DNA from: Trichormus sp. ATA11-4-KO1
Lineage (GTDB): Bacteria; Cyanobacteriota; Cyanobacteriia; Cyanobacteriales; Nostocaceae
NCBI GenBank assembly: GCA_019358915.1
Contig: JAHHIM010000073.1
Span: forward strand, 256,001 to 320,000
DNA: 64,000 bases
Reading direction: 5' to 3'
The position numbers were made by a program, and so were the translations under genes. Position 1 is the first letter of the stretch. Each line of letters opens with the position of its first letter. Positions 7,665-61,693 of the stretch are shown here, one piece after another. The notes beneath the pieces are model-generated. The model was not told the DNA's origin and made no database searches. It saw nothing but the letters and a program-made list of their open reading frames with translations.

Positions 7665-7745
7665 CTTCGTGTCTTGGTGTCTTTGTGGTTTATCACTACG
7701 AAGACACAAAGTCACCAAGGAAATCCAAAATCCAAAATCCAAAAT
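7665..7745. repeat. Inverted pair of AACCNCNAAG-type repeats followed by (AATCCAA)n STRR
   Basis: CTTCGTGTCTTGGTGTCTTTGTGGTTT / ACTACGAAGACACAAAGTCACCAAG then AAATCCAAAATCCAAAATCCAAAAT. Confidence 0.7.
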
Positions 7746-26349: not shown

Positions 26350-26826
26350 TTATTCCCCAGAAGGGATACTATCCAAAACCTGCTGAAATTCTGTTGTAGA
26401 AGAAAGAGCGATCGCTCTTTTCAGTAAAGTTTTCAGTACAGATGCATCTGTTTGTTCATAGTCCAAAAGCTTGGCCACAGGAAACTCTAAACTCACCCGA
26501 CATCCCCCCAATTGATACCTGTAGCTGGAAGGTCGCCAATTTGCCTGTTCATCTGCTAACACGGCTAAACTAATGACTCGCTTTTTATGGCGGTCAAACA
26601 AGCGGTAATTGTAGGTATACATCCGTTCGGCAAATTGGCTGTCATATTGTCCTTGGACTTCTACATGCACCAATACCCAAGCTTCTTCGCCATCCAGTAA
26701 CCAAACTTTTGCGACTTTATCAACCAAACGCCGACCAATTTCGGCATCAGGTTCTAGTTGTTGTAATTCTGTGTCCAGAAATTCATAAGGGCGTGTCCAG
26801 TCGATTGCAGCAGATTGCTCAGTCAT
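26350..26826 (-). pseudogene. Rpn/YhgA-like PD-(D/E)XK protein, apparently internally deleted
   Basis: IDWTRPYEFLDTEL, VDKVAKVW, VHVEVQ, RMYTYNYRLFD, SLAVLAD; short for the family; starts 3 bp after the ureC stop. Confidence 0.6.
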
Positions 26827-26829
26827 GAA

Positions 26830-28536
26830 CTAAAACAAAAAGTATCTTTGCGCCATTGGTAACACTGTCGCCGGTTCACAAATCAGTAATTCACCATTTG
26901 CCCTGACTTCATAAGTTTCTGGATCAACTTCAATGTGAGGTAAGGCATCATTTAGCTTCATATCCCGTTTACTCACTTGGCGTGTCCCGGAAACGGCAAC
27001 GGCTGTCTTTTGTAAATTCAATTGACTGGGAATTTCTCTTTCTAATGCTGCTTGGGAAACAAACGTTAAAGATGTGGCGTGACGCGCCCCGGCAAAACTA
27101 CCAAACATCGGTCGTGTATGCACTGGTTGGGGTGTGGGGATACTGGCGTTAGCGTCACCCATTTGTGACCAAGCAATCATGCCGCCTTTAATCACGATCT
27201 CTGGTTTCACGCCAAAAAATGCAGGTCGCCATAAGCATAAGTCTGCAAGTTTCCCTGCTTCCACTGAACCCACATACTGGGCAATACCGTGAGTAATCGC
27301 TGAATTTATGGTATATTTAGCAACATATCTTTTAGCTCGAAAATTATCTGCTTGACCATCTTCAGCAAGACTTCCGCGCTGCACCTTCATTTTGTGGGAT
27401 GTCTGCCATGTGCGAATTATTACCTCACCAACTCGCCCCATTGCCTGGGAATCAGAAGCAATCATACTAAACGCGCCTAAGTCATGCAAAATATCTTCCG
27501 CCGCAATAGTTTCCCGGCGAATCCGAGACTCGGCAAAGGCGACATCTTCGGGAATTCCAGAATCGAGGTGATGACATACCATCAACATATCCAGGTGTTC
27601 TTCTAGGGTGTTAACGGTGTAAGGACGGGTGGGGTTGGTGGAAGATGGTAAAACGTTGGCTTGGCTGCAAACTTTGATAATATCTGGTGCATGTCCACCA
27701 CCTGCGCCTTCTGTATGGTAGGTGTGAATGGCACGATGTTTGAAAGCAGCAATGGTGTCTTCGACAAATCCGGCTTCATTTAAAGTATCAGTATGAATTG
27801 CTACTTGTACATCATATTCATCTGCAACACTGAGACAAGTATCTATAGTCGCGGGTGTGGTTCCCCAGTCTTCATGTAGCTTTAATCCCATTGCACCCGC
27901 TAAGACTTGTTCAACAATTCCTTGGGGTTGACTGGTGTTACCTTTACCCAAAAATCCTAAGTTCACAGGGAAAGCATCAGCAGCTTGTAACATGCGGTGA
28001 ATATTCCACGGGCCGGGGGTGCAGGTAGTGGCGTTTGTCCCTGTGGCGGGGCCAGTACCACCGCCAATCATCGTAGTAATTCCAGAGGCGATCGCCACTT
28101 CAATTTGTTGGGGGCAAATAAAATGAATATGACTATCAATACCGCCAGCCGTGAGAATCATCCCTTCTCCAGCTAAGGCTTCGGTTCCAGGGCCAATAAT
28201 AATATCTATATTGTCTTGAATATAAGGATTGCCGGCTTTACCAATTTTGCATATTTTGCCGTCTTTAATACCAATATCGGCTTTGACAATTCCCCACCAA
28301 TCGAGAATTAAGGCGTTGGTAATGACTAAATCTACTGCACCATCAGCGTTAGAAATGGGGGATTGTCCCATTCCGTCACGGATGACTTTACCGCCACCAA
28401 ACTTCACTTCATCACCGTAGGTTGTGAAATCTTGTTCTACTTCGATGAATAATTCTGTGTCTGCAAGACGGATGCGATCGCCTACTGTGGGACCATAGGT
28501 TTCTGCGTAGGCTTGGCGTGAGATTTTGTAAGGCAT
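26830..28536 (-). CDS. ureC: Urease subunit alpha
   Basis: [37 protein letters not shown]. Confidence 0.98.
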
Positions 28537-28575
28537 TATACAGTCCTGGATTTTGAGGTTAGAATTGTTTTGAAA

Positions 28576-28592
28576 CGCAAAGGGACGCGAAG
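28576..28592 (+). repeat. Left 17-bp inverted repeat of the GxxExxY cassette
   Basis: CGCAAAGGGACGCGAAG is the exact reverse complement of 28979-28995. Confidence 0.9.
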
Positions 28593-28593
28593 T

Positions 28594-28971
28594 ATGGATG
28601 AGAATGATTTAAGTTGGGCGATTATTGGTTGTGGAATGAGGGTGCATACGGTGTTGGGGCCTGGTTTGTTGGAGTCTGTGTATGAGGAGTGTTTGGATTA
28701 TGAATTAAGGCAGCAGGGATTTAAGGTTGGTAGGCAAATTCCCTTACATCTTGTGTATAAAGATGTGGAATTAGATTGTGTTTATCGATTGGATTTGATT
28801 GTAGAAAATAAAGTAGTGATTGAAGTTAAATCTGTAGAATCTCTTAAACCCATCCACGCAGTACAACTCTCAACCTACCTAAAACTCACTCACTGTAAAC
28901 TCGGCCTCCTCCTCAACTTCAACGTCCTCCACCTCAAACAAGGAATCAAACGCGTCGCCAACAACCTCTAA
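28594..28971 (+). CDS. GxxExxY protein (PD-(D/E)XK nuclease superfamily)
   Basis: [43 protein letters not shown]; antisense to the urease operon. Confidence 0.92.
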
Positions 28972-28978
28972 ATCCTCT

Positions 28979-29020
28979 CTTCGCGTCCCTTTGCGCTCAC
29001 CTCCGCGTACCTTTGCGTTT
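28979..29020 (-). repeat. Right inverted repeats (two tandem units) of the GxxExxY cassette
   Basis: CTTCGCGTCCCTTTGCG followed by CTCCGCGTACCTTTGCGTTT, which runs into the ureB stop. Confidence 0.9.
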
Positions 29021-29324
29021 AAATCTTCCCATTAACCTTGCCATTAAAACCATAAACCTCACGACTTCCAACCAGAGGAACAAGAGTCACCGCCTTTTCA
29101 TCCCCTGGCTCAAACCGCACCGCCGTACCCGCAGGAATATCAAGCCTCATCCCCCGCGCTTGTTCCCGATCAAAATTCAAAGCCTGATTGACCTCATAAA
29201 AATGAAAATGGGAACCCACCTGAATCGGGCGATCGCCTGTATTAGCCACCTGTAACTTAATAGTAGAACGACCAGCATTTAACTCAATTTCACCATCTGG
29301 TGTAATAATTTCCCCTGGAATCAT
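29019..29324 (-). CDS. ureB: Urease subunit beta
   Basis: [35 protein letters not shown]. Confidence 0.98.
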
Positions 29325-29341
29325 AACAGAATTTTCCTAAT

Positions 29342-29998
29342 TTATAGATTTTCCAAAAATTGTACAAATGGCTTGAAAGCTTGAGGACATAATTCGGCAA
29401 TATCCTGATATCTAGCACTTCCTAATATAATTGGTGCATCTGTTTTGCCATCATATTTTTTGCCAAATTGCTTAAAAAGTTGCTCTACAATTTTTTTCGG
29501 TGGTTGATTATGATTTTGGTCTTCAACTGGTTTTGTCCATGTTATTGGTAAAGCATTAACACCAAGTATGCTGGTTAATTTTGATTCAGCAGCTAAAATT
29601 AAGGCTTCTAAATCATGTTTAAAGCAAAAAACCTTAAACCGACCTCTTAATCGACTATCATTAATTCCTTTAGAATTTAATACTTGATTAAAATTATTTA
29701 AAATACCATTTTCCAATTCTTGAATTGTTTCATGAGCAAAACCTTTGTTTTTGGGATATAAATCTGGCACTACTACCACAATCGAATCTGGCTGATTGCA
29801 GATAATATTGACTGCTTTAATTGGTGTCTTTGTCAGTAAATCTTTTTTAGCATCTCCTCCTTTATCATTATCCTTTCCCTTAACAGGAAAAAAATTGATG
29901 CTAATGCCCTGCTGTAATTTAGTTTCAATTAAACTTCCTAATAATGCTTCCATTGCGAATTTATCAGATGTGCCTTCAACATAAATATCAACTTTCAT
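29342..29998 (-). CDS. DUF4276-like protein (TOPRIM-like)
   Basis: IYVEGTSD, VVPDLYP, HDLEALIL, CPQAF; ATGA overlap with the upstream ATPase. Confidence 0.75.
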   Translation of the reverse strand: MKVDIYVEGTSDKFAMEALLGSLIETKLQQGISINFFPVKGKDNDKGGDAKKDLLTKTPIKAVNIICNQPDSIVVVVPDLYPKNKGFAHETIQELENGILNNFNQVLNSKGINDSRLRGRFKVFCFKHDLEALILAAESKLTSILGVNALPITWTKPVEDQNHNQPPKKIVEQLFKQFGKKYDGKTDAPIILGSARYQDIAELCPQAFKPFVQFLENL

Positions 29999-31188
29999 GG
30001 AAGCCTCTCTAATTCATCGCTACGGTGTAACTGTTCTATTTCATCTGAGCCAAAATCGTCAAGCATATCAATTAAAACTTGAGAATTCCCAGGTTTAATA
30101 AACTTTGCTTCTCCATTCTCTTTTCTGAGTACAGCAATTTGAGCAATATCGAACTGTGTGAGAAAGTAGGAAGCATGAGTAGCTAAGAGAATTTGAGTTC
30201 GTTCAGAAGCTTTTTCAAATAAAGCAGCAAGAACAGGTAGTGTGCGAGGGTGTACACCTTGATCTGGTTCATCAATACAAATTAAAGAAGGCGGATTTGG
30301 CTGTACACAAAGACAAATCCAACAAATTAAACGCAAAATTCCATCTGATAAATCAGCAAGACTTAAATCTTCATCAATACCTGATTCCTGCCAAAAAGCT
30401 ATGACTTCTCCTGGTCCACCACGAGCTTTCACTGTTAAGCCTTTAAAACCAGGAATTACCGAACGTAAGTGTTGTTGTAGTTCGTCAAAAGCTGATTTAT
30501 GTTCAGTCATTAAGGAATATATAATTGAACTTAAATTACCTGCATCTTCCCGTAATACTGGTTCTTGTTCCAGGACAACTGATTTACGAATTTTATCATT
30601 TGCTATATTAAAAGAGCTATAAAATCTCCAATTACGAATATATTCACGTAAGTTATATAATGCTTCTAGTGATGGATTTATCATTGCACTCAGCGTTAGT
30701 TGATTATGACGCTTTAAAGCAATATCTTGTGCTATTTCTACTGGTGTAAATCGTGTTTCTCCAGGTTCTTTAATAACACCTTGATTACCTTGAATATCCA
30801 TATATATATATGGATTACTGTATCTATCACTAAAAGGTCTAGAAGACTCTACACGCTCATAGGATACTTGAGTTCGACCAACTGGACCCATCAGTTCTCC
30901 TAAATATCTCATACCAATAGGACGACCCGTATCAATTTCTATATCCCATTGAAATTTTTCCGGGCCAGGAATATGAAAAATTTTTTGACCAATAGAACCA
31001 GGAACAATTTCAGGAGGTATATCTTGATAAAGACTATCTCGTAAAAACTTCAGAAATTCAAACAAACTTGATTTACCAGCACCATTAGCACCAACAATAA
31101 TTTCTAGTGGTTGCAATGACGCTGCAAAATTCCTGAAGGGTCGATAACCTTGAATATTGACATTAGTCAATCTATATGGAGATAGCAT
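29995..31188 (-). CDS. ABC/SMC-type AAA ATPase (AAA_21-like)
   Basis: GANGAGKS Walker A, LSDG signature, ICIDEPD Walker B, ATH. Confidence 0.9.
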   Translation of the reverse strand: MLSPYRLTNVNIQGYRPFRNFAASLQPLEIIVGANGAGKSSLFEFLKFLRDSLYQDIPPEIVPGSIGQKIFHIPGPEKFQWDIEIDTGRPIGMRYLGELMGPVGRTQVSYERVESSRPFSDRYSNPYIYMDIQGNQGVIKEPGETRFTPVEIAQDIALKRHNQLTLSAMINPSLEALYNLREYIRNWRFYSSFNIANDKIRKSVVLEQEPVLREDAGNLSSIIYSLMTEHKSAFDELQQHLRSVIPGFKGLTVKARGGPGEVIAFWQESGIDEDLSLADLSDGILRLICWICLCVQPNPPSLICIDEPDQGVHPRTLPVLAALFEKASERTQILLATHASYFLTQFDIAQIAVLRKENGEAKFIKPGNSQVLIDMLDDFGSDEIEQLHRSDELERLP

Positions 31189-31240
31189 CTTTTTCCTCTA
31201 TTTCGCTGACCTTCTATTTCTCATATTAAGTATTTTTTTC

Positions 31241-31543
31241 CTAACGAATCGGATGATGCACAGTTACCAACTTCGTACCATCAGGAAAAGTTGCCTCCAC
31301 CTGTACCTCATGAACCATTTCCGAGACACCCTCCATCACATCATCCCGCGTTAACAGCGTCGTCCCATAACTCATCAATTCCGCCACCGTTTGTCCATCC
31401 CTCGCACCCTCCAAAATAGCAGCCGAAATATAAGCCACCGCCTCTGGATAATTCAACTTCAAACCCCTATGCTTACGTCTCTCAGCCACTAAAGCAGCCG
31501 TAAAAATCAATAACTTATCCTTCTCTTGCGGCGTAAGTTGCAT
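31241..31543 (-). CDS. ureA: Urease subunit gamma
   Basis: [29 protein letters not shown]. Confidence 0.98.
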
Positions 31544-31552
31544 TCTTCCCTC

Positions 31553-31580
31553 CTCCGTGTTCTCTGCGCCTCTGTGGTTC
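31553..31580 (-). repeat. AACCNCAGAG-type dispersed repeat in the ureD-ureA spacer
   Basis: CTCCGTGTTCTCTGCGCCTCTGTGGTTC aligns without gaps to 58655-58682. Confidence 0.8.
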
Positions 31581-31582
31581 GT

Positions 31583-32437
31583 TCAAACCTGCCATACTCT
31601 AGGTACACAGCCACCACGTTGTAAAAAAGACACCCGTAGCAACTGCCAAACAACCGTAAACAAGTTTCTCACCTCAGACGTAGAAGCACCACGGTATCGA
31701 CACAAAAATCCATTTTGTAACTGCGTCACCCCAACTTCCCCTACCCCGTCCCATAAACTCCGCGCTTTTGCCAAGATTTCCCCAGAAACCGCACCTCCCA
31801 CCCAAACCAGACTACCCACTATTGGTTGTCCAGCCAAACCATGAGGACTGTGAAACACTTCTTCATTACCGGGTAACCACTGACGATCCATCCATAAAGG
31901 CACACCTTCCTGCCAAATTTCGGTATGCGATCGCCATTCTCCCTGTAAAAACTTTTCTCCTCTAGCACTGCGACCAAATCGAGTAATTTCCCAACCTAGG
32001 AAACTACCTCCAGGGGCTAATTCTATCCGTAAATCTTGCCGATAAACTGCCCCATTAAACAAAATTGTTTCTTGCGGTAACCACTCCAAACAAGCACCTG
32101 CATCAACTTGTATGTGAATATTTTGCCTAGCTTGCAGTCCATTACTACGGTATATCTTACTGGCTGCGGCTGTAGTAATTAAAGCTTGTGCATCGGGTTG
32201 GAGGTGGAAATTACAGGATAGGCGATCGCCCCCCACCACACCCCCAGCCGTGTGTAACATGACACTATGACAAACTTTTTTACCCTCTGGATAAAAAGGC
32301 TTTTGTACCTTTAGCGGTGCTTGATGGTGATTGTAAATTAACTGGGTAGTGTTTAGGCGATTGGCATAAACTAAATTAAGCTCGCCATGCCAACCTTCTT
32401 TATTTACTGTTGTTGAATTGGAATGCTGTAAAGTCAC
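31583..32437 (-). CDS. ureD: Urease accessory protein UreD
   Basis: APLKVQKPFYPEG, HTAGGVVGGD, TTAAASKIYRS, EWLPQETI, PRVW. Confidence 0.95.
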   Translation of the reverse strand: MTLQHSNSTTVNKEGWHGELNLVYANRLNTTQLIYNHHQAPLKVQKPFYPEGKKVCHSVMLHTAGGVVGGDRLSCNFHLQPDAQALITTAAASKIYRSNGLQARQNIHIQVDAGACLEWLPQETILFNGAVYRQDLRIELAPGGSFLGWEITRFGRSARGEKFLQGEWRSHTEIWQEGVPLWMDRQWLPGNEEVFHSPHGLAGQPIVGSLVWVGGAVSGEILAKARSLWDGVGEVGVTQLQNGFLCRYRGASTSEVRNLFTVVWQLLRVSFLQRGGCVPRVWQV

Positions 32438-33316: not shown

Positions 33317-33457
33317 TATAGCGTTTCCTAATCTGCTGAAGTACTGAGTACAGCGCTAATAAAATTTGGCAATCTTTGCGTAACTCTGCGCTACCTTAGC
33401 TTCCCTCTACGTTAAATAACATTAGTTCTGTACCTCACTTAATTAGGAATCGCTATA
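33317..33457. mobile_element. 141-bp MITE family C inserted in a GTAGAGACG palindrome
   Basis: TIRs TATAGCGTTTCCTAAT / ATTAGGAATCGCTATA (15/16 match). Confidence 0.75.
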
Positions 33458-58156: not shown

Positions 58157-61100
58157 TTAAGCGCTAAAGTACTTAGCCACCGGATGATAAGCAATAATCG
58201 CCGTCGTAGACTGTTCTGGATAAAGCTGCTCACTTTCATCCATATACAGATTAATCCTGTCAGTCTCTAACAACTCCAATTGCTTATATTGATCCTGAAT
58301 ATTCGGACAAGCCGGATAGCCAAAACTATACCGTGAACCAGAATAACGCTGTGCCAAAACATCCCGAATATTATCCGGTTCCTCAGCTACAAAACCCAAC
58401 TCCCGCCTAATTCTCGCGTGAGTCCATTCCGCCAACGCCTCAGCTACCTGCACAGCCAAACCGTGAAAATACAGATAATCAGTGTATTGGTCAGCAGCAA
58501 ATAACTTTTGAGCAAACTCCGTCGCAATATCCCCCACAGTCACCGCCTGCATCGGAAACACATCTATCACCCCCGACTCCTTTGGCGCAAAGAAATCAGC
58601 AATACACAACCGCCGCAAAGACCTCTGTCTCGGAAACTCAAAACTCGCTCTTACCTCCGCGTCCTTGGCGCCTTGGCGGTTCGCATTATAAACATACAAC
58701 GTATTCCCCTCAGCCTGACAAGGAAAATACCCATAAATCACCTGAGGATGCAACAAATTCTCCCCAATCACCCTTTCCTTCCAACCTGCCAAAATCGGAT
58801 AAACCTTCTCATCCAAGAAAGCCTGATACTCCTCCTTAGACTGTTCCTTCGGCTTACGGAATTGCCATTGTCCAGCAACCAACGCCTGTAAATCCAAATA
58901 TGAAAAAACCTCCTCCAAAGGAATATCACCAGGCTGTAATAACTGAGTTCCCCAGAAAGGCGGCGTAGGACGGGGAATATCTATAGCGACAGCTTCAGAA
59001 CGACGGGTATCGATGGGGACTGGGGATTGGGGACTGGGGACTGGGGAGGATTCACTTGTGGATGGGGAGGTGGTAATTTCTGGTTCTGCTTCTACCTCAT
59101 CCAAAAATCCTTGCAAATCATCCCAATTACTAGCAGCCTTGGCTGGCATTAATTTATCCATAAAATGCAAATCAGCAAAGGCATCTTTACCATACACCAC
59201 CTTACCCTTGTAGGTGTTTTGGCAATCTTGATGCACAAATTTGGGGGTTAGTGCTGCACCACCTAAAATTACAGGAACTGTAATTCCCTTTTCATTAAAA
59301 GCCTGTAAATTCTCTTTCATAAAGGCGGTAGATTTCACCAGCAAACCACTCATGGCAATACAATCAGCTTTGTGCTGTTCGTAAGCCTGGATAATATTTT
59401 CCACCGGCTGCTTAATTCCCAGGTTAATCACCTTGTAACCATTGTTGGACAAGATAATATCTACCAAGTTTTTCCCAATATCATGCACATCACCTTTGAC
59501 GGTGGCAATGATAAAGGTTCCCTTGGCATTATTGCCAGATTCTGATTTTTCCATGAACGGTTCTAAATATGCAACCGCCGTTTTCATGGTTTCCGCAGAT
59601 TGTAAGACAAAAGGTAGTTGCATTTGTCCTGAACCAAATAACTCACCGACAACCTTCATCCCATCCAGCAGAAAGGTGTTGATAATTTCCAAAGGGGGAT
59701 ATTTGTCTAAAGCTTGTTTGAGTTGGTCTTCTAAACCAATGCGTTCGCCGTCGATGATATGGCGTTTCAAGCGTTCTTCGATGGGGAGACTTTCATCCAC
59801 ACCGCGATCGCGTTTAGTCGTGACCCCTGCAAACAGTGTGGTCAGCTCTCCTAAAGGATCATAAACGCAGATATCACCCTCAAATTTGCGCTGATCATAA
59901 ATTAAGTCACGACAAACTTCTTGATGCTTGGCCTCAATTTTAGATAGCGGTAAAATTTTGTTAGGGCTGACAATGGCTGCATCCATGCCGGCTGTCATTG
60001 CCTCATGCAAAAACATCGAATTCAGCACAACTCGCGCTGCTGGGTTCAAACCAAAGGAAATATTAGATACTCCCAAAATTACATGGCATCCTGGTAATTC
60101 TTGGCGAATCCGCCGGATCGCTTCTATAGTAGCCTTGCCATTAGCTCGGTCTTCTTCAATCCCTGTAGAAATTGGTAGTGCTAAAGTATCAAAAAAGATT
60201 TCTGTGGACGGAATCCCATATTCTACAACTTGCCGATAAGCACGCTGGGCAATTTCAAACTTCTTCTCTGCTGTCCGCGCCATGCCATCTTCATCGATAG
60301 TCCCAATGACTACACCAGCACCGTACTTTTTCGCTAATTCCAGTACCTTAAGAAAACGCGGTTCCCCGTCTTCGTAGTTGGTGGAGTTGAGCAGACACTT
60401 ACCCCCGGCAACCTTTAATCCTGCCTCCATTTTTTCCCATTCTGTAGAGTCCAGCATCAAAGGCAGCGTAACATTATTAACAATGCGGGAAACTAACTCG
60501 CGCATGTCCCGCACACCGTCACGTCCCACGTAATCGACGTTGACATCCAGGATGTGTGCGCCTTCTTTAACTTGCGCCCTAGCCATTGACACCAGTCCAT
60601 CCCAATCTTCCGCGTTTAATAAATCACGGCACTTCTTGGAACCACTGGCGTTGAGACGTTCACCGACAATTAAGAAGGAATTATCTTGGTCGTAGGGCTG
60701 AGTAGTATAAATTGATGCGGCGGCTGGTTCTAAGCTTGGTTGTCTGGTTTTAGGTTTCAGTTCTTGGGCAATTTCTGCCAATTGTTGAATATGTTCTGGA
60801 CGTGTCCCACAGCAACCCCCAATCACTTGGACACCCAAATCTTCAACAAAGTGCATTAAAGCCATACGTAATTCTATTGGTGTCAAGCGGTAATGTGCTT
60901 GACCGCCAACGTTCTCTGGTAAACCGGCATTGGGTATACAAGAGACAATGAAAGGTGAATGTTCTGATAGATACTTGATATGTGGTTTCATCAAGTCTGG
61001 GCCTGTGGCACAATTTAAACCCAGGATATCTATCGGATATGGTTCGAGAATTGTCAGGACGGCGCTGATTTCGGAACCTACCAGCATTGTCCCCATGCTT

Positions 61101-61693
61101 TCCATTGTCACAGATACCATTAATGGGCGGCGTTCTTTCTTCTTGGCAAAGACTTCTTCGATACCATTCAATGCTGCTTTGATTTGCAGCACATCTTGGC
61201 AAGTTTCTACCAAAAATAAATCAACACCACCATCAAATAGCGCTTCGGCTTGTTCGGCGAAAGACGCTTTCAGGGTATCAAAGTCAATATGTCCTAAAGT
61301 TGGGAGTTTGGTTGTGGGGCCTATGGAACCGGCGACAAATCGCGGTTTTTCTGGTGTGGAAAATTCGGCGGCGACGCGCTTGGCTAGTTCTACTGCTGTT
61401 TTGTTTAAGTAATAGGTTTTGTCTGCTAAGTCATATTCTGCTAAGACAATTGATGTTGCACCAAAGGTGTCGGTTTCAATGACATCAGCGCCGGCGGCGA
61501 GAAAGTCGCGGTGAACTTTGGCGACAGCTTCGGGTTTGGTATGGACTAGGTATTCGTTACAACCTTCATATTGTGGACCCCCGAAATCTTCGGCCGTGAG
61601 GTTTTGGGTTTGCAGGTTGGTTCCCATTGCACCGTCAAAGACGATAACTGGACGGTTGGGACTACGCAGGCGTTCTAGGAAAGGATGAGTCAT
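58157..61693 (-). CDS. metH: B12-dependent methionine synthase
   Basis: [37 protein letters not shown]. Confidence 0.98.
58655..58682 (-). repeat. AACCGCCAAG-type repeat translated inside metH
   Basis: GAACCGCCAAGGCGCCAAGGACGCGGAG encodes NRQGAKDAE. Confidence 0.75.
59013..59047. repeat. STRR (GGGGACT)n translated inside the metH linker
   Basis: Encodes [11 protein letters not shown]. Confidence 0.85.

Follow-up and report, generated by a model that had tools for sequence, protein, structure and literature searches.

Strand-oriented halos of synonymous G/T excess around heptamer arrays in the urease operon and across the genome of Trichormus sp. ATA11-4-KO1

The stretch of 64,000 nucleotides (nt) of Trichormus sp. 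ATA11-4-KO1 considered here (the window; the genome is called G000 and its sister genome G001) holds a urease operon in the order ureD-ureA-ureB-ureC on the minus strand. These host genes occupy 31583..32437, 31241..31543, 29019..29324 and 26830..28536, respectively, the last three encoding the gamma, beta and alpha subunits and ureD being assigned by its position and by what we presume to be sequence likeness, with no NCBIfam match. The operon is split twice, by an AAA ATPase and DUF4276 gene pair between ureA and ureB (29342..31188, minus strand) and by an antisense gene of 125 codons between ureB and ureC, GxxExxY (28594..28971, plus strand; TIGR04256, PF13366), which encodes a predicted minimal PD-(D/E)XK nuclease fold. 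Arrays of direct heptamers accompany these genes: two CGC[AG]AAG units directly 5' of the GxxExxY start codon form the left arm of its cassette (28576..28592, plus strand), four units inverted with respect to them form the right arm (28979..29017, minus strand), and a solo array of three units without an opposite partner nearby lies between ureD and ureA (31553..31576, minus strand). The solo array is also present in G001, where the ATPase/DUF4276 pair is missing from the corresponding site. With synonymous sites scored against the genome mean of their own codon family, the array strand carries an excess of G and T amounting to +0.20 on the left and +0.16 on the right of the left-arm array (within 300 nt), to +0.31 from the right arm toward ureB, and to +0.37 toward ureA and +0.16 toward ureD around the solo array.

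Three halos result when this excess is followed along the DNA in windows of 30 sites. The first lies on the plus strand (28250..28845; +0.11 to +0.35) and covers the 5' end of ureC and the 5' half of GxxExxY, the second on the minus strand (28848..29370; -0.45 to -0.14 in plus-strand terms) over the 3' half of GxxExxY and ureB, and the third, also on the minus strand (30844..31900; -0.07 to -0.39), surrounds the solo array in ureA and the 3' end of ureD and is faint in the 5' end of the ATPase gene. Inside the 125 codons of GxxExxY the plus-strand excess swings from +0.35 to -0.45, and it stays near zero over most of the inserted ATPase/DUF4276 pair, which is nearly skew-free and serves as an internal control. 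An earlier note on this DNA had reported the reversal from hand counts, and these were exact: codons 2-41 of GxxExxY end in 20 G, 16 T, 4 A and no C and 38 of its last 40 in A or C (G/T in the 5' third, A/C in the 3' third), 34 of the first 40 codons of ureA end in G or T and none in C, and 32 of the first 40 of ureC in A or C. The G/T richness of ureB was likewise recovered (29/40, 35/40 and 19/22 codons), while the 3' end of ureD is enriched but more mildly than had been claimed (26-28 of 40 codons vs. 20-23 of 40 at its 5' end). Against an amino-acid-matched genome expectation, three stretches of the locus (z = -7.1, -6.3 and +5.6) all belong to the 100 most extreme regions of G000. The cleanest two-sided halo belongs to another gene of the window, metH (58157-61693, minus strand), which contains in frame a three-unit array (58655..58678, minus strand) with +0.37 and +0.33 on its sides and -0.06 in the distal parts of the gene. 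The window further holds a head-to-head array pair without net halo (7665-7719) and a young-type array with a weak one (33374-33390).

The rule that the skew follows the strand of the repeat and not the direction of the gene, also proposed in the earlier note, was borne out in all four classes of side and orientation. Around the 280 arrays of strict C[AG]C[AG][AG]AG units in G000, the array-strand excess in the nearest 100 nt is +0.16 5' of the array (z 18) and +0.09 3' of it (z 10.5), fades across about 300-700 nt, is gone by about 1 kb and amounts to approximately 0.00-0.01 beyond; gene calls relied on a simple filter of open reading frames (ORFs), so that bins closer than 50 nt to young elements include false ORFs, and the ortholog analyses are independent of this filter. 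The skew is seen upstream and downstream, beside sense and antisense genes alike, spacers between antisense genes (+0.25/+0.26, n=7) being as strong as those between sense genes; at convergent gene pairs it occurs on the upstream side only (n=10), and at least one of these pairs hides an opposite relic array. Random spacers given random orientations yielded a null with a standard deviation of 0.006 and a maximum of 0.025 among 20,000, vs. an observed mean of +0.093. A repeat-blind search pointed to the same element, as the intergenic 10-mers most orientation-enriched near 281 extreme regions were array words, and in a second ranking, of 5,128 frequent intergenic 10-mers, array words were on top once more. 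Other tandem repeats of G000 gave at most +0.01 (TCAGCAC, 249 copies) and at most +0.04 (TGAC[ACT]AA, 67 copies), and neither distance to nor count of the highly iterated palindrome HIP1 predicted halo strength (for distance rho -0.16, p 0.12, n=97). A weak mirror-image skew (+0.033 upstream, -0.021 downstream) was observed around 210 intergenic copies of GCGATCGCCT, an oriented HIP1 context. Of the 100 most extreme regions, 30 lie within 250 nt of a strict array in the same orientation and several others near looser ones, and many are not accounted for by an array; strongly skewed regions without a recognisable same-orientation array include C45:15760-16531, C51:2739-3411, C29:15288-15684 and C65:287876-288068 of G000, where arrays may have been lost, genes imported, or another mark may operate.

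The cassette seen in the urease operon recurs with its polarity. All three GxxExxY genes of G000 are flanked by inverted arrays, and one cassette has a CGCAGAT unit with a halo of its own (9 strict copies, z 4.5 and 4.0). Among the best 80 of 481 confirmed cyanobacterial GxxExxY loci, which come from few contexts and are not independent, an array lies upstream in 76 and downstream in 73, G/T-ending codons average 33.3 in the first 40 codons and 11.0 in the last 40, and the first 40 exceed the last 40 in 79 of the 80, two of these being broken genes; their host genes are positive upstream in 67 of 73 and fit downstream in 7 of 13 scored. In a phylum-wide sample (40 of the 65 family matches from 121 genomes), 23 cassettes are flanked by arrays on both ends, and 22 of these, spread over six families, have gradients between +0.18 and +0.77, the exception (G103) showing none despite 2,737 HIP1 sites. 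The observation is real, strong and repeatable across cyanobacterial families. A full GxxExxY gene occurs in 18 of 23 array-rich genomes vs. 9 of 98 others, and both position and co-occurrence suggest a role of the protein in the halo. Three loci (L442, L470, L471) carry a GNGFQ-type subfamily whose arrays, built of CAGGAT units, are laid out the other way round and whose gradient is reversed (-0.15 to -0.22); CAGGAT-type arrays of G000 (17 loose matches) have no halo, and the sign in the three cassettes fits by eye. Viral contigs contributed 3 further loci and plasmids 8 records.

According to its structural model (predicted local distance difference test score 95.8), GxxExxY is a minimal PD-(D/E)XK fold nearest, at middling scores, to Cas4 and restriction-type nucleases: BpuSI (Z 8.2, root-mean-square deviation [rmsd] 2.5, 91 aligned residues) and SSO0001 (Z 8.1, rmsd 3.1, 99 aligned) are tied, the best Foldseek match is Cas4 (E 1.7e-3), and a sequence search returned no solved relative. 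Across 101 homologs E26, D66 and K78 are invariant and E76, Q90 and Y94 nearly so; E26, D66, E76 and K78 correspond to the acidic and lysine catalytic residues of PD-(D/E)XK enzymes, and the QxxxY formed by Q90 and Y94 is presumably the RecB/Cas4 motif. Proteins of 263-295 residues with two tandem GxxExxY domains (P0121-P0131, P0139, P0146) suggest that the single-domain form may work as a dimer. The family numbers 19,414 clusters at E<=0.001, and the accessible part of one source lists the function of PDDEXK_3/GxxExxY as unknown (PMC3424549).

Skew of this kind could precede the arrays, if these insert or survive in DNA that is already skewed, and the comparison of copies of different age bears directly on this. 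Copies lacking an opposite array within 800 nt number 239; their flanks are unique in 107, near-identical to those of another copy in 99 and intermediate in 33. The halo is positive in 76 of 100 scored unique-flank copies vs. 45 of 89 young ones (Mann-Whitney p 2e-7). In the alignment with G001, the only other genome of the genus (1.36 Mb aligned of 1.83 Mb fetched from about 6.5 Mb), arrays common to both genomes have halos (0.69-0.71 keto, i.e., G or T, at 50-100 nt) and arrays confined to G000 have no skew (0.47-0.51 keto), whereas around those detected in G001 alone both genomes carry a halo, as a loss from G000 would predict. The halo therefore builds up after insertion. Prior skew also fails to explain why the peak is centred on in-frame arrays with distal parts of the same gene flat, why the sign flips within nearly every GxxExxY locus, or why the array strand agrees with the skew of its 2-30 kb flanks in no more than 136 of 276 cases, with an excess near zero beyond 1.5 kb, a result that speaks equally against replication polarity. 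What favours it is a halo in some orthologs without a recognisable unit (mean +0.12, n=46), which we read as probable relics of arrays, and we regard it as the least probable of the explanations weighed here. The contigs of three DNA runs showed neither a joint nor an empty site.

Arrays in frame within genes allow the same question to be followed over longer times. G000 has 26 looser intragenic matches; 10 of these have halos at z>3.9, and the distal parts of their genes, if of scorable length, are flat. In metH, bchH, putA and ileS (30 best orthologs each, from 61, 41, 41 and 41 genomes, in total 120) the halo is seen across the orthologs and weakens where the array has decayed, being 0.12, 0.19, 0.24 and 0.27 when the loop retains 0-3 intact units (rho 0.56 over all 120, among which kin are not independent). 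Its decay length is about 320 nt on the 5' side and about 670 nt on the 3' side, the latter being only slightly longer in G000 (sense 17/23, antisense 4/7 copies). The comparison with orthologs suggested in the earlier note gave a like result in ureA, with a third-position G+T of 0.85 here, 0.80 in the sister with an intact array, and 0.31-0.68 at the other 27 of the 29 loci parsed from 30. Other short elements were encountered in the same loops: a different, hairpin-type CCCCCTC...GAGGGGG repeat occupies the loop in putA or ileS orthologs L302, L304-L306, L309, L345 and L346 (with skew upstream only in ileS of L345 and L346), and second elements (TTCGCGAAGCGTG..., GGGTTCCCCGACTTG...) are nested in frame within arrays in L222, L260, L276, L290, L291, L307, L326, L335 and several times in G000. 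The mutS gene of G000 (C65:217485-219998, minus strand), in one of the 100 most skewed regions, has an in-frame relic array at a break in the profile match.

Substitution rates were estimated by tree fits on 59 gene copies of the four in-frame genes with at least two intact units (chosen by array state), at 221 strict fourfold halo sites, and are given relative to distal sites as read on the array strand. Raised in the halo are A>G (x1.9-2.2), C>T (x1.4; x1.3-1.4), A>T (x2.1), C>G (x2.3), G>T and T>G (both x1.8), and lowered are G>A (x0.5), T>C (x0.5-0.6), T>A (x0.3), G>C (x0.4) and A>C (x0.5), C>A being poorly determined. Each rising change complements a falling one, as expected if events were re-partitioned between the strands, and a model with only two parameters (changes to G/T x1.84, to A/C x0.47) reached a log-likelihood of -2980.9, compared with -2990.7 for a four-parameter fixation bias, -3048 and -3050 for deamination-only models and -2974.0 for twelve free rates. 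The earlier note had seen in the skew the signature of deamination, by which the array strand, exposed single-stranded, would accumulate extra C>T and A>G with nothing else altered. Both transitions do shift as that explanation expects, and A<->G divergence on the array strand of halos is 1.9-2.4 times background. As the whole cause deamination nevertheless failed, since G>A and T>C are roughly halved, transversions towards G and T are likewise raised, the increase of A>G is no smaller than the modest one of C>T, and there is no dipyrimidine or CpG context; the fit is worse by 67 log-likelihood units, a source-only model is rejected pairwise (p 9e-13), and we hold this explanation to be very improbable.

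Of the processes that could re-partition changes between strands, the best reading, at a probability only a little below even, is an array-anchored, strand-directed excision and resynthesis of the opposite strand by host repair of the MutS/MutL type, from a nick made by GxxExxY or a host enzyme. A long-resident array would act as an oriented mark, upon which cyanobacterial DNA maintenance would treat the two strands unequally over some hundred bases on both sides. The strand opposite the array (CTTTGCG/CTCTGCG) would preferentially be excised and resynthesised with the array strand as template; errors on the array strand, whether mispairs or lesions, would mostly read as G or T and be kept, and the same events on the opposite strand, which would read as A or C, would be erased. 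A nick or loading event would take place at the array, with GxxExxY as a candidate nicking or binding protein and host mismatch repair as the putative excision machinery; MutS and MutL are encoded in G000 (99.9% complete), and a MutH match was not found in this genome. Either the biased resynthesis that the earlier note had also considered or strand-directed repair agrees best with the data, and this is unproven, since in simulation the tree test cannot cleanly separate it from fixation bias.

Fixation bias would be the outcome of a strand-polar biased gene conversion, in which the array strand would invade when chromosome copies recombine with one another or with DNA taken up, and G.T wobble heteroduplexes would outlast A.C pairs, so that G and T alleles of the array strand are transmitted more. 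The polyploidy and competence known from cyanobacteria would suit such a process. Almost identical shifts in the odds of A>G and C>T (x2.74 and x2.67) without strong sequence context, suppressed reverse changes, a tract-like two-sided decay and the likeness of GxxExxY to Cas4/RecB-type nucleases agree with conversion. Pure fixation bias does not predict, on the other hand, that G>T and T>G rise together; within GxxExxY genes, the two directions of G<->T exchange are faster at the 5' end (15 sites), and the two of A<->C at the 3' end (20 sites). In sister differences at 22 loci picked on independent twofold sites, the two-parameter model is adequate (chi2 3.4, p 0.65), while fixation bias (p 0.064) also needs a rate scale of 1.49 vs. 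a local baseline of 1.16; this comparison, little touched by multiple hits, places re-partition modestly ahead, by 3.8 log-likelihood units. Conversion further meets 49 G/T differences where 25.2 are expected before scaling, requires 1.26-1.3-fold more mutation input than local baselines and leaves the unbiased repeat variants described below unexplained. Taken together, we consider conversion quite unlikely as the cause.

Several results weigh against strand-directed repair as well. In simulations with rate heterogeneity the parameter that discriminates between the models is biased, and its observed value (0.09+-0.08) falls between those of fixation bias (0.34+-0.14) and of the destination model (-0.21+-0.13; 14 replicates each), so that fixation bias is compatible with it. 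At the 5' end of GxxExxY the four-parameter fixation model is better by 7 units, and per-gene support for re-partition ranges from strong in putA to none in metH. The 5'-NAC hotspot of repair-defective Escherichia coli was not apparent in the halos, where A before C shifts least (x1.8 vs. x3.8 before G), a comparison blurred by the conversion of the neighbouring bases themselves. What is seen at the array is the two-sided decay, from which a strand-specific nick would have to be deduced. The effect is also uneven, since +0.2 is reached by 21 of 100 unique-flank copies (vs. 0.8% of 2,886 random spacers), and 5 of the 23 array-rich genomes have no full GxxExxY match, a co-occurrence that is moreover confounded by kinship.

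DNA outside genes adds to these objections. A miniature inverted-repeat transposable element (MITE) of about 170 bp, with 36-42 copies in G000 (e.g., C36:420562) and the ends CAGGGCTG...CAGCCCTG, carries a perfect three-unit array as cargo. With its intact array it has no halo, and variants among 42 copies are unbiased (10 of 21 to G/T, p 0.002 vs. the halo share), as they are in five families pooled (51 of 107). Non-coding DNA beside old arrays in long spacers is barely skewed (0.523 G+T, 38 sides), with 0.577 (738 nt) at strong shared loci. Either arrays are active only in a transcribed or coding context, as strand-directed repair may have to assume, or the force acts at fixation on coding DNA; the evidence speaks against a simple local mutator, and it is for this reason that selection and conversion together retain a sizeable minority of the probability. 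Selection would concern synonymous sites near arrays in transcribed DNA, through folding of RNA or single strands or against near-cognate nuclease targets. Besides the unbiased MITE variants, it has in its favour that the effect peaks in coding DNA, with +0.12 to +0.16 at third codon positions, at most +0.10 at first and about 0 at second ones, compared with about +0.02 in non-coding DNA more than 60 nt away, and that the largest halos belong to in-frame and tightly wedged copies. It would have to favour, nonetheless, G/U-rich mRNA at sense arrays and A/C-rich mRNA at antisense ones, equally strongly and on both sides; there is no motif-specific avoidance, A before C being the least converted, divergence in halos is raised and not lowered, and a search of G000 for Rho, which would be the natural reader of C-rich RNA, gave nothing above the cut-off (best 21 bits vs. 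509). Selection is an unlikely explanation, about as probable as conversion, and both trail the repair that we prefer.

The behaviour of the cassette in most other hosts was unforeseen in the earlier note. A distant alignment retrieved 598 metagenomic cassettes, and the best 80 of these include 52 with arrays on both sides and only 37 in which the 5' end exceeds the 3' end. Only two of these 80 have a gradient of at least 0.3, both of Nostocales type; once they are excluded, 36 clean cassettes average +0.009+-0.021, i.e., no gradient, a further difficulty for a repair directed by array and nuclease. These loci are poor in HIP1 (0.26 vs. 9.1 per 10 kb), which indicates that their hosts are probably not typical cyanobacteria. 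The gene travels with its arms in these hosts and yet leaves no gradient, so that nuclease and arms are insufficient and a host factor is needed.

Other features of the locus are less directly connected with the halos. The ATPase of the inserted pair is of the AAA_21 type with a weak MADS3 likeness, and the pair looks like a defence or toxin-antitoxin-type cassette. A match to Rfam RF02514 (5' ureB small RNA, 114 bits) at 28095-28381 on the plus strand, antisense to ureC, may merely reflect urease coding homology. Directly 3' of ureC, an ORF of 158 amino acids (26350-26826, minus strand) has no Pfam or NCBIfam match, and we take it to resemble Rpn-type transposase N-termini.

Several known systems share traits with the halos. 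Transcription-associated asymmetry gives a G+T excess on one strand through unequal repair with a polarity that follows gene direction, unlike the halos, whose polarity follows the array in every class of side and orientation. Elhai reportedly described in 2008 the small dispersed repeats (SDR) and short tandemly repeated repetitive sequences (STRR) of Nostoc, very short dispersed repeats of heterocystous cyanobacteria, and the heptamer array may, we presume, equal one of the listed families. In replication, transitions occur at twice the frequency if A and C are on the lagging-strand template (10.1101/346874), which places A>G and C>T on one strand, and the array strand resembles a permanent leading strand; that asymmetry has the scale of a replichore, while the halo spans 300-700 nt with the repeat setting its polarity, has an up/down ratio of about 4 and gives no clear sign of the hotspot mentioned above. 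The closest precedent for strand-directed repair is Elhai's hypothetical, methylation-dependent proposal of a GmeC-directed mismatch repair that builds HIP1 in cyanobacteria with MutS/MutL and without MutH (PMC4390886): guided by a mark in the sequence, the cell would nick and remove the opposite strand, so that mutations of the marked strand are kept. Its product is a palindrome, whereas here the mark is a non-palindromic array and the product a wide compositional halo. Repetitive extragenic palindromic (REP) sequences and REPINs with their REP-associated tyrosine transposases (RAYT) likewise combine a small nuclease gene between inverted repeat copies with repeats dispersed in spacers and in frame in genes (PMC3116915, PMC3733652); the present units are instead direct non-palindromic heptamers without the GTAG/CGTC tag, the enzyme is a PD-(D/E)XK and not an HUH tyrosine transposase, and the accessible text of those sources mentions no flanking skew. 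Repeat-induced mutagenesis in yeast also alters mutation at a distance on both sides, by double-strand breaks at hairpins or triplexes and Pol zeta, with raised rates up to 8 kb (PMC3681665), but there the effect differs from that of solo direct arrays with strand polarity and half of the changes suppressed. New here are that solo arrays skew the same strand on both sides, the pattern of rates and the restriction to some hosts. A literature search, which left most subscription journals and the SDR paper outside and so does not show absence from print, found no description of the halo, and a local strand-oriented bias around a repeat is apparently undescribed.

Whatever its cause, the halo is a sequence-anchored, oriented distortion of substitution rates in essential genes (metH, ileS, mutS, urease), of a kind that models of codon bias, of the ratio of non-synonymous to synonymous substitutions (dN/dS) and of phylogeny assume to be absent. 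A broader proposal, which we put forward tentatively and consider doubtful, is that GxxExxY-associated heptamer arrays are permanent oriented marks for strand discrimination, at which a nuclease of the element or a host protein would nick and repair would overwrite the nicked strand in both directions; each array would then work in cis as a mutational compass under which silent sites in essential genes have been rewritten over a large part of cyanobacterial history, and the size of a halo would date the insertion. If based on repair, the halos would offer a direct handle on strand choice in bacteria without MutH; if based on selection or conversion, they would still reveal an unknown strong force on silent sites across hundreds of bases. 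The arrays also give a very large nuclease family, whose function is listed as unknown, a first substrate for testing, and the contrast of cyanobacterial with other hosts is a natural control.

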